This document shows positions 10,950 through 35,315 of a stretch of DNA of 64,000 nucleotides, in pieces (the first letter of the stretch is position 1; each line of letters opens with the position of its first letter). Both the position numbers and the translations under genes were made by a program. The notes below the pieces were generated by a model. The model did not search any database and was not told the DNA's origin. It was given only the letters and a program-made list of their open reading frames with translations. This stretch comes from Glaucostegus cemiculus (lineage: Eukaryota): the NCBI GenBank assembly GCA_976551045.1, contig CDPCPM010000370.1:1364001-1428000 (forward strand), in the 5' to 3' direction.

Positions 10950-11389
10950 ATGCTGTGTCGCGCAGTAATACAGCGCCGTGTCCGTGCCCTCGGGGCTGTC
11001 GATCATAAAATGGCCCCGTTTGTCCACAGCGGAGAAATCCAATTTAAAGTGACCATTGTTCTCTATTCCAGCCACTACTCCCTTTATTATCCATTCCAGG
11101 CCCTTTCCGGCTTTCTGTCTGTGCCAGTACATGTAGACAACGCCGGTTGTGTCATAGGTGCAGTTCATCTGCACGGACTCCCCGCGGCGGGTGGTAAGTT
11201 CAGATGGAGACTGCAGCACTCGATCAGAGAGACATCGACCTGAAAACAAAACACAAAACAATATCCCGTGAAATTGGGCCAACGCGAATAAATATAAAGA
11301 CCGCGGGTTATTTAGCAGCATCTCCTCAACTTACATATCAGCAGCACCAGGCAGAGTGGAATGATATTCAGCTTTACCGAGCGAAACAT
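10950..11389 (-). CDS. Intact TCR V segment, family B (leader 11389-11335, V exon 11239-10950)
   Basis: MFRSVKLNIIPLCLVLLI|gtaagt, then in frame CRCLSDRVLQSPSELTTRRGESVQMNCTYDTTGVVYMYWHRQKAGKGLEWII..DTALYYCATQH, followed by a perfect RSS. Confidence 0.92.
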
Positions 11390-32614: not shown

Positions 32615-33065
32615 ATGGAAATCTTGCTGGTTTTCACTGCGTCCGTCTGCTTACACCGTGAGTACCGTTCAGATACTTAAACATAAAACTGCACTAGTCC
32701 ATTCTGAAGTTCAAACATTGTCCGTATTTGGCCTGGTGCAAGCATTTCCCATTCATCTCCGCCCTGTGCTTAATTTCCAGTGTCTTTCTGTCGGTCGGTG
32801 ACCCAGTCCCCGATGATAGTGACCAGGGAGGAGTGTCAGTCACTCACCATCAAATGCCGTTTTCAGAGCGGTTTGGCAGATAAATTCCGGACTGGTCATT
32901 TCTTCAAACAGACGCAGCCCGGGGCAGAGTGGCAGCCGATCTCTCGGGGGGGACGGTTTGTTACGTCGACAAATAAAGCAAAAAATACCTTCACGCTTGA
33001 AATTCAGAATCTGAGAGTTGCAGACAGCGTCACCTATTACTGTCAGGCCGAGTACACGTGGAAAA
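32615..33065 (+). CDS. NAR-TCR (NTCR) V segment, VNAR-like (leader 32615-32657, V exon 32781-33065)
   Basis: MEILLVFTASVCLH|gtgagt; LSFCRSVTQSPMIVTREECQSLTIKC..FFKQTQPGAEWQPISRGGRFVTSTNKAKNTFTLEIQNLRVADSVTYYCQAEYTWK. CDR2 region is deleted as in IgNAR V (ISKGGRYVETVN..SFSLRI); extra FR1 Cys at 32834. Confidence 0.88.
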
Positions 33066-33103
33066 CACAGTGATGGACCAAGGCTCGCCTCGGTACAAAA
33101 ACT
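33066..33103 (+). promoter_or_regulatory. RSS with 22-nt spacer
   Basis: CACAGTG + 22 nt + ACAAAAACT. Confidence 0.9.
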
Positions 33104-33430
33104 CTCACTGCAGATTTTCCCACAACTGACGGGGGAAAGTGAACCTTCCGGTGAACCCCTCGCTCCATCTGCCCCTGCGCTGAGTTAAAACAGGATTGGA
33201 TCATTGCACATTATACACTGGGTTTTCTCACTGCCTGGAATGCACGGATCGTAGTCGCTTTTCTCGAGTCTGCTGTCAGTGAACGAAAATTGAAAATGAC
33301 CAATCCGACTTCCTACTCCCAATTCTAGATGCTGTTGCTGCAGATCGGAAATTTCACCGGCTGGCTTTTAACTTCTGCGCGCACGTCTCGCTGAGAGCAC
33401 GCAAATTTGAAAATGACATGAAACACCGTG

Positions 33431-33501
33431 TGGGATTGGATATTTCGGAGGGGGTATTTACTATATTTCTGGAACTGGCTCTGCGGTAACTGTCACATCT
33501 G
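33431..33501 (+). CDS. NAR-TCR J segment with D-like 5' extension (possible germline DJ join)
   Basis: Heptamer CACCGTG at 33424-33430; frame GIGYFGGGIYYISGTGSAVTVTS; phase-1 donor G|GTAAGT at 33501/2. Confidence 0.8.
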
Positions 33502-34836
33502 GTAAGTATCTGAAAATTTCTACTTTTCTCCCGCTGTCCCGGGTAATATTCTGTGTAATTTAACAACAGGACTGAACGACATCGATCTCCTTCAAATAGA
33601 AAGAGGCCTGATTGCGAAATTGTTTATTGCAAAGTGGCTCTGAAGCGATCCGGGCTGAAGGAATCACGTCTCGGTTTGAATCCAGAGAGAGGATATGCGA
33701 GGCGCCCTAGGAGCAGACGGATTGGGGATGGTGATAGACAATTAATAGTGGTCTCGCTAGCGACATCCGCGTCACCGAAAAGGAATACACGTGAAAAAAT
33801 GCACCGAGTGAAGGGGTGTAGACTACGAAGAGGGGCAATGACTAATTCACGGCGTCAGCTATCTGATATTTCCTGCAGTTGTTGTCGAAGCGTGGGAGAG
33901 AGATTTTGGTGTCGGCGCTGTTTACGGAGCAATCAGATTATCTGCAGGTGTGTGGGGATTGTCCTGCGGAGACCTATTTTGTCGGATGGGTCCACACGCC
34001 CTCGGTGTTTGAAGACTGAAAAGTAATCTATTTGCTACTCAGAAGGACGACAGAAGGAGATTGACAGGAGGGATGCTGAGCTGCGAGTGAGTCTGAATCC
34101 CCTGGGAAAACCGTAGAGTGGAACCCAGCCGACTCCTGACAGATTGTCGTACCTGTTATCGGAAGGTAAAATATGAACCGCAAACAGCACAAAATCGAGC
34201 CATATAGGTATCAAAAAGAAAGAACTGTAAATAATTGATATGAAAATAAAATTAATAAACACCCGTCTCAATTTGTGCAGAACGGGAATAAGATCTTTTA
34301 TTCCGGGTTGTGACAAAGTGCTGACCGCCGTTCCGCAGACCTTCAGTGATGTTGAATCTCACTCCTTGACCGTGGAATCTTGCCATGTAATGGACAATAT
34401 CCAAAAATGGACACATTTATGGAAAGCTCATCTATTTCTCAGAAGGAACGTACTGTTCAAATATTTATTCTAATATGTCTTTTGCAGAAGAAACATAAAA
34501 GACAACGGGATTTCTGGAGAACAGGGAAGGATAACTTGACGGGCCTGGATGCTGGCTCTTTGATTTTTCTCCACTGTTATTCTGCAATGCCTTGATTAAT
34601 TCTCATTTTCTTACAAATTTCTTCATTTTCCCTTTCATAATCACAGTCCCAGACGTCCTGTGGCAGTTTTCTCCCCCACCGCAGCAAGTCGCTGAAATAA
34701 TTACAAAGAGAAATTAGGAAAATTTGCATCGATTTTAAATGAAGAATTTTTTGCGAAACCGAAGTCTATTCCTGCTGTGACACTGACTTCGCTAAATTAA
34801 CTAAAATAATCATGATTTCTCATTTTCATTCTGTAG

Positions 34837-35138
34837 GTACAATTTCCTCGCAGTCCCAGAGATTTCAATATTCTGCCGGTGACACCGTCACCTTAAGCTG
34901 TGAATATTCCGGGTTCTGTCCGTACACAATCCATTGGTATCTGCAATTACCAGGACAGGCTCCGAAATTCCTGCTCCAGAGGCACACTTCAGGAGAGCAA
35001 GATAAGGAAAACGTGCCCGGAAGACTGATTACTGGTTCTCTCGATTCCAGCAAAAAACTCAGCCAGTTAACGATCTCCAAAGTACAACTGAACGACTCGG
35101 CTGTGTATTACTGTACAATGAGTCCTCGCACAGCACTG
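34837..35138 (+). CDS. Leaderless supporting TCR V delta of NAR-TCR
   Basis: Acceptor cattctgtAG; GTISSQSQRFQYSAGDTVTLSCEYSGFCPYTIHWYLQLPGQAPKFLL..DSAVYYCTMSPRTAL; extra CDR1 Cys at 34917; no leader exon found upstream; in frame with the J donor. Confidence 0.88.
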
Positions 35139-35315
35139 CACAGTCACATAGAGTACGGCGAGAGCCGCACAAAAACCTCAGTGTTGTGGATTACAAACAC
35201 ACAGCAGTGCAGAGCGTGGAGAGCTGTTCAAAAACCAAGGCGTGGTAAGGTACAGACACTCGGCGCAACAGAGCACGGAGAGAGCTGCACAACATCCATG
35301 GTGTGGTGGGGATTT
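35139..35315 (+). repeat. 23-RSS (35139-35177) plus two diverged tandem copies, period 59 bp
   Basis: CACAGTC-23-ACAAAAACC; CACACAG-23-TCAAAAACC (35198-35236); CACTCGG-25-ACAACATCC (35257-35297); shared gag.acgg.gagagc.gc spacer core. Confidence 0.8.

Follow-up and report, generated by a model that had tools for sequence, protein, structure and literature searches.

The NAR-TCR of cartilaginous fish is described, in the accessible text of PMC1845163, PMC12227049 and PMC5931798, as a cassette of the TCR alpha/delta locus in which a leader and a VNAR-like V with a Cys in the a-b loop are followed by a leaderless V-delta with a Cys in CDR1. Its marks include the leader on the NAR V, the a-b loop Cys and loss of the Trp of WYRK (PMC1845163). 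The cassette analyzed here has the same arrangement of exons and probably lies in the same locus. In the described NAR-TCR, rearrangement consists of two separate somatic V(D)J events (PMC1845163, PMC12227049, PMC5931798), whereas D and J of the top domain were found already fused in the present DNA.

Examples of germline joining are already on record in shark Ig, in marsupial TCR-mu and in newt TCR-delta. In the nurse shark, joining of Ig light chains by RAG in germ cells, with little evidence of TdT, and their expression in pups are described (available parts of PMC2193156). Ig clusters of VD-J, VD-DJ and VDJ type are listed in reviews, one of which calls germline joining peculiar to cartilaginous-fish Ig genes (PMC5192425, PMC4279169). 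The germline-joined shark and skate Ig (VD-J, VD-DJ, VDJ, VJ; PMC2193156, PMC5192425, PMC4279169) resembles the family studied here, as joined copies stand beside split ones, joints lie at coding ends, introns are kept and there is little clear N addition; those are antibody genes, however, and the present cassette belongs to a T-cell receptor. For shark or skate Ig, the accessible portions of these three papers name no lone DJ join beside a free V. Marsupial TCR-mu Vj is likewise a germline-joined element of a three-domain TCR chain, but it is an invariant supporting domain, fully joined, and retrotransposition is thought to have been involved (PMC3457774, in part). Here it is the antigen-binding top domain that is joined, only partly and in place, with its introns. 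A retrotransposed joined V of the TCR-mu Vj type was rejected, as the leader intron and the V-D DNA are kept and the V is still free. Rearranged TCR in germline DNA, as in the present case, is also described for newt TRD, with pre-joined V-J that is expressed and frequent (PMC12698447), and for catfish TCR-beta, for which the authors propose transposition from T cells (PMC6170632); unlike the present join, each of these is complete from V to J and belongs to a conventional TCR domain, as far as the accessible text of these papers goes. A DJ case in NAR-TCR was not found in the literature searched: no germline-joined NAR-TCR appears in its accessible parts, which included PMC12227049, PMC6795676, PMC5931798 and PMC3964593, or in one supplement of PMC3964593. 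Criscitiello 2006, Ott 2021 and a 2019 J Immunol paper (Ig V in shark TCR-delta) could describe one.

The window, the whole stretch of 64,000 nucleotides that was analyzed (C370:1,364,001-1,428,000), contains several TCR-like V exons and a single two-V cassette. This cassette, open and located at 32615-35177, is a NAR-TCR cassette in which D and J are fused in the assembled genome, likely by RAG in germ cells, with one V-to-DJ join left to be made. Its features, in window positions, are as follows.

32615..32657, plus strand: leader exon of the NAR-TCR V; reads MEILLVFTASVCLH, phase-1 donor GTGAGT
32781..33065, plus strand: open exon of the NAR-TCR V; a-b loop with an extra Cys (REECQ), HFFKQ where WYRK would stand
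33066..33103, plus strand: V recombination signal; CACAGTG, 22-nt spacer, ACAAAAACT
33104..33401, plus strand: V-D intervening DNA, without a D; 5' part homologous to that of split paralogs
33402..33430, minus strand: family-type recombination signal on the 5' side of D; heptamer at 33424-33430, 12/13-nt spacer, weak nonamer
33431..33440, perhaps to 33442-33445, plus strand: D-derived part of the join; TGGGATTGGA
33441..33450, plus strand: junction core; may be N nucleotides, or the D 3' end plus a diverged J 5' end
33451..33501, plus strand: J-derived part of the join, long-J type; ends at the phase-1 donor GTAAGT (33502-33507)
34837..35128, plus strand: supporting V-delta exon, leaderless and open; phase matches the J donor, CDR1 Cys (SGFCPY)
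35129..35236, plus strand: row of RSSs behind the supporting V; best CACAGTC-23-ACAAAAACC at 35139-35177, second at 35198-35236

The NAR-TCR identity that the first-pass annotation had proposed was borne out. The first V has a leader and the a-b loop Cys and lacks the WYRK Trp, and the exon at 34837-35128 has the CDR1 Cys and no leader; no leader-like exon was present in 33508-34836 by the same scan that detects the true leader. By sequence, VNARs were the best single-domain PDB matches of the first V (E 5e-15 to 4e-14), and two multi-domain antibody constructs scored higher only by summed domains.

The window V was used as a query of the genome and gave 31 matches at 30 loci; the remaining 29 loci were all compared. 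Complete cassettes numbered 27: 22 split, four other pre-joined, and that of the window. Outside these stood L024 (a lone V) and L026 and L028 (IgNAR-like, contig C132). L027 and L029 were used in the D profiles and were absent from the J profiles. In the split layout, V is followed by a 12-16-nt D with an RSS on either side, then by an intron and a J with a 23-RSS. In these paralogs the V RSS spacer is 22 nt, the V-to-D interval mostly 376-394 nt, and the D 3' RSS has a 12-nt spacer; the D-J intron, measured to 27 nt before GxG, is 371-414 nt, or 190 nt in L020. The J RSS spacer is 23 nt in 22 of 22 unjoined J segments, and the 5' part of J is at most 34 nt. Several paralog cassettes contain stop codons, and supporting-V matches share the orientation of the window cassette in 19 of 28. 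The closest paralog V was only 75% identical to the window V, and the V tree gave no resolved position for the latter.

Several of the remaining loci were irregular. L020 (C370:1,117,111, plus), with its D-J intron of only ~190 nt, has lost the J nonamer, which suggests a deletion reaching the J RSS spacer. L024 (C370:2,148,433, minus) is a diverged NAR-like V with an RSS; the 8.4 kb downstream hold neither D nor J nor a supporting V. L026 and L028 (C132, at 2.29 and 2.45 Mb) are two IgNAR-like V..J clusters in which V ends without a clear heptamer. L030 and L031, supporting-V matches without a NAR V match, had no hidden cassette within 7 kb; at L030 (C370:768,589, minus) the supporting V is broken and NAR V is absent in 6 kb upstream.

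Against this family, the window cassette has neither a D 3' RSS nor a J RSS, nor the D-J intron of ~380 nt, and retains the D 5' RSS, V RSS, both V exons, leader and splice sites, intact and in phase. A heptamer, CACCGTG, lies 365 nt past the start of the V heptamer and is followed by 71 nt (33431-33501; T + GIGYFGGGIYYISGTGSAVTVTS) that are open in the J frame and end at the GTAAGT donor. The 31 nt ending at this heptamer scored 31.2 on a D-5' RSS profile (leave-one-out range 14.5-46.0), the highest D-5' score among 125,716 window positions (runner-up 6.4) and above 8 of 22 split cassettes; the same 31 nt scored -10.1 on the J-RSS profile. Within 33061-33520 no D-3' RSS was found (best score -7.3, vs. 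16.2-40.5 leave-one-out for 22 real ones), no J RSS (best 2.3, located within J) and no second D-5' signal (second-best -1.2). The distance from heptamer to GxG is 40 nt, vs. 18-34 nt for the 5' part of the 22 unjoined J segments. Several features of a germline join are present: the facing RSSs and the DNA between them are gone, the coding ends abut, and split paralogs exist.

The first-pass annotation had read a single heptamer ~350 bp after V, then 71 nt in one open frame, as a D and J pre-joined with no free D between the V RSS and J, and had suggested a comparison with paralogous cassettes for a split arrangement. The measured distances agree, that arrangement was seen in 22 of 27 complete cassettes, and the D-5'-type signal runs directly into D-like and then J sequence. 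Two observations could have overturned the reading: unjoined paralogous J segments of equal length with the same 5' sequence, and a true D within 33104-33420. Since the signal is of D-5' type, the stretch long and a free D lacking by the family RSS profiles, neither was seen; the paralog J 5' parts are shorter and have a different RSS. At the level of sequence, the D-J pre-join in an otherwise intact NAR-TCR cassette is confirmed.

Within the joint, 33431-33440/33442 fitted the D profile (score 7.1, matched by 1.4% of 8,759 background sites), and the long-J profile fitted from 33450/33451 on, as well as or better than it did at all but 0.04% of 62,968 background positions. From 33451 to 33463, 12 of 13 nt are identical to the J of paralog L006, and blastn alignments to L006 start at 33451. 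The joint is thus D-like for 10-12 nt and J-like from position 20/21, with both breakpoints at coding ends. Its total of 40 nt falls within the 39-45 nt expected for D (12-16) plus long J (27-29), and a D of 13 nt with a J of 27 nt gives exactly 40 without any N. The 7-10 nt at about 33441-33450 are assignable to neither D nor J; they may be N nucleotides, or the D 3' end plus a diverged J 5' end. An N-nucleotide stretch at 33444-33455 had been proposed earlier: the leftover part may indeed be N, but GGGGT at 33451 is J sequence, and in view of the identity to L006 about half of the stretch is J-derived, from 33450/33451. A further parse without N, of 10 nt of D, a J 5' end TATTTC and one inserted codon, fitted the L005 J at 5 of 6 positions and was set aside as 8-9% of shuffles did equally well; it is possible on sequence grounds. 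The window joint is old and diverged.

Under the 12/23 rule the V RSS, with its 22-nt spacer, can pair with the D 5' RSS (12/13) that faces it, and a single deletion would then bring V to DJ. With these two signals present and the D-J signals gone, a single V-to-DJ step does remain, as first suggested. A T cell would then finish the top domain by this one join instead of two, RAG in developing gamma-delta T cells deleting 33066-33430. V runs a single base beyond its last full codon and DJ opens with one spare base, so an untrimmed join would be out of frame and an in-frame product would need junction editing. The untrimmed length from Cys to GxG is 62 nt in the window and 55-70 nt in 20 split cassettes (L025 mis-called). 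The CDR3 of the top domain would have ~20 residues, of which those towards the 3' end (up to GIGYFGGGIYYIS) would be fixed in one of the D frames; variation at the V-DJ junction would persist, so that no more than two-thirds of the loop, on its 3' side, would be fixed. This fixed part has no charged residue, whereas each of the 22 split J 5' parts has one, with D or E just before GxG in 19 of 22. The contig also carries one constant exon that resembles that of a Mustelus two-V gene model (C370:197,965-198,231, minus) and is presumably C-delta; as this match is on the opposite strand at a distance of ~1.2 Mb, joining of the supporting V to D/J-delta would be a separate event and an inversion.

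The window cassette is slightly more likely than not to be still used in T cells. A less probable reading, although one to be taken seriously, accepts the germline RAG join and holds that the cassette is decaying, with V-to-DJ joining made rare by a weak nonamer and the DJ left as a neutral fossil. In its favor, 5 letters of the D 5' nonamer, read at spacer 13, differ from the consensus, the most of 24 scored, so that the V-to-DJ step is possibly inefficient; at 365 nt, V and D lie closer together than in any other well-called cassette, NCBI marks the sawfish counterpart as LOW QUALITY, and stops occur in several paralogs. Set against it are a leader, two V exons, splice sites, a DJ frame and two extra cysteines that are all intact, a D-5' profile score that exceeds those of 8 of 22 split cassettes, and the intact CAC of the heptamer, CACCGTG also being the heptamer of the split L006 and L025. 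The first-pass annotation had called the nonamer poor; the window nonamer is the worst, but a weak nonamer is common to the family, with 3 mismatches in 16 of the 22 split cassettes, 4 in five and 1 in one. Across L001-L029 the D 5' nonamer is non-canonical, mostly with 3 mismatches, and a spacer of 13 nt gives its best reading; the order in which the segments join may be biased by this in the family.

For the join itself, RAG is very probably the agent: in an ancestral germ cell it would have cut at the D 3' and J signals, and the coding joint, made in place, would have been inherited. Pre-joining was found in 5 of 27 complete cassettes, and these four further cassettes (one DJ, two VD, one VDJ) favor germ-cell RAG. 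The second DJ cassette, L023 (C370:2,214,848-2,215,129, minus), has a heptamer and 33 nt to GxG followed by the J core, which equals a 15-nt D plus an 18-nt short J; its V is diverged, an in-frame stop interrupts the D part, and that D part fitted the D profile no better than background (31%). In the VD cassettes L012 (C370:780,529, plus) and L021 (C370:1,905,058, plus), V is followed directly by a 12-spacer D-3' signal, then an intron and J; these two joins were separate events (p-AU 5e-48). L017 (C370:1,350,716-1,351,080, plus), ~13 kb before the window, has V, D and J in one open exon, in which Cys and GxG are 69 nt apart, and a supporting V 1 kb downstream; the leader scan gave no leader exon there. 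A single clade for the two DJ cassettes was not rejected (p-AU 0.12), so the window and L023 joins were perhaps one event; their joints differ in length and J type.

The alternative is an ordinary deletion, for example by microhomology between the near-palindromic heptamers, that removed the D-J interval without RAG. A D of 15 nt, a heptamer of 7 nt and a short J of 18 nt also add up to 40 nt. In this 15-nt-D register, CGGAGGG at 33446-33452 shares 4 of its 7 letters with the D 3' heptamer, a fit with a ~7% chance at one fixed place (binomial estimate). On the side of RAG, the joint has no heptamer remnant with fewer than 3 mismatches. The L012 joint contains a heptamer-like 7-mer with 1 mismatch, so L012 may be a plain deletion. 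For the window, the short-J form of this deletion is disfavored, as the J and its downstream intron group with the long-J cassettes L001/L005/L006/L012 (93/88) and grouping with the short-J clade was rejected (p-AU 0.034): the window J belongs with the long ones and not with those of 18 nt. In an interval of roughly 800 nt, neither deletion end is more than ~10 nt from a coding end, and five cassettes of three layouts have their joins at such ends or close to them, as would be expected from RAG and only rarely from random deletion. Deletion without RAG is therefore improbable, and the germline RAG origin first proposed is probable on the breakpoints and the three layouts.

That the join is inherited is held with high confidence. 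A somatic lymphocyte rearrangement or an assembly error caught in the assembly is very improbable, although the window stretch is present in only a single sample. DNA of that sample (tissue unrecorded) spans the join. The contig of run X1 covers 33379-33682 with no differing letter and one gap, outside the join, and that of run X2 covers the L017 join. X1 and X2 come from one sample, possibly the source of the assembly, and read depth gives no share of cells, so they are not independent confirmation; the agreement of X1 shows only that the join is no slip of long-read assembly. No split form or alternative joint was listed among the short-read contigs at the join, and the assembly holds no second near-identical or split copy of the window cassette. 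A somatic origin would moreover require a dominant clone for each of the five joined cassettes. Least probable is a D-less cassette with an unusually long J bearing its own 12-RSS, a V-23/12-J layout that obeys the 12/23 rule and would function alike, but which is ruled out for the paralogs of this genome by the 23-spacer RSS and the 5' part of at most 34 nt in 22 of 22 unjoined J segments, the window signal being of D 5' type at the D position with 10 D-like nt behind it.

The named protein closest to the window cassette was a Pristis pectinata model, P0001 (XP_051882915.1), identical at 82 of 94 aa in V, 13 of 16 in J and 80 of 96 in the supporting V, a similarity that suggests a ray-like host. 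It reads W-G-I-Y-Y where the window reads G-G-I-Y-Y, with W as in the long J segments, and its J is also uncharged. The comparison is at the level of a protein model flagged LOW QUALITY by NCBI; the window and the sawfish may share the join. The GIGYF part was in none of 51 elasmobranch NCBI gene-model proteins, models that splice around the junction and so are uninformative on a shared join. Germ-cell RAG activity, described for Ig clusters of cartilaginous fish, is extended by the RAG reading to the locus of TCR alpha/delta and with it to T cells, with three join types in a single family and 22 split controls, and it raises the question whether pre-joined receptors mark early or innate-like T cells of sharks and rays, as pre-joined antibodies mark neonatal B cells. 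A bolder and rather doubtful version is that RAG repeatedly pre-assembled NAR-TCR in the ray germ line, and that the DJ form, shared with sawfish, was kept by selection for an innate-like gamma-delta subset. If so, one recombination step would give a single-domain loop that is mostly fixed, without charge and rich in Gly and Tyr, and these T cells would parallel the germline-joined antibodies of newborn sharks.

Elsewhere in the window, two to three RSS-like units are stacked at 35129-35300 behind the supporting V, and the same repeat was seen in paralogs (blastn). Positions 1356-1459 are a decayed 3' fragment of a supporting V-delta, 76% identical to 35029-35134. Four conventional V exons of TCR alpha/delta type were also present, at 10982 (minus), 15219 (plus), 25752 (minus) and 43042 (minus), in both orientations and with 22/23-spacer RSSs.
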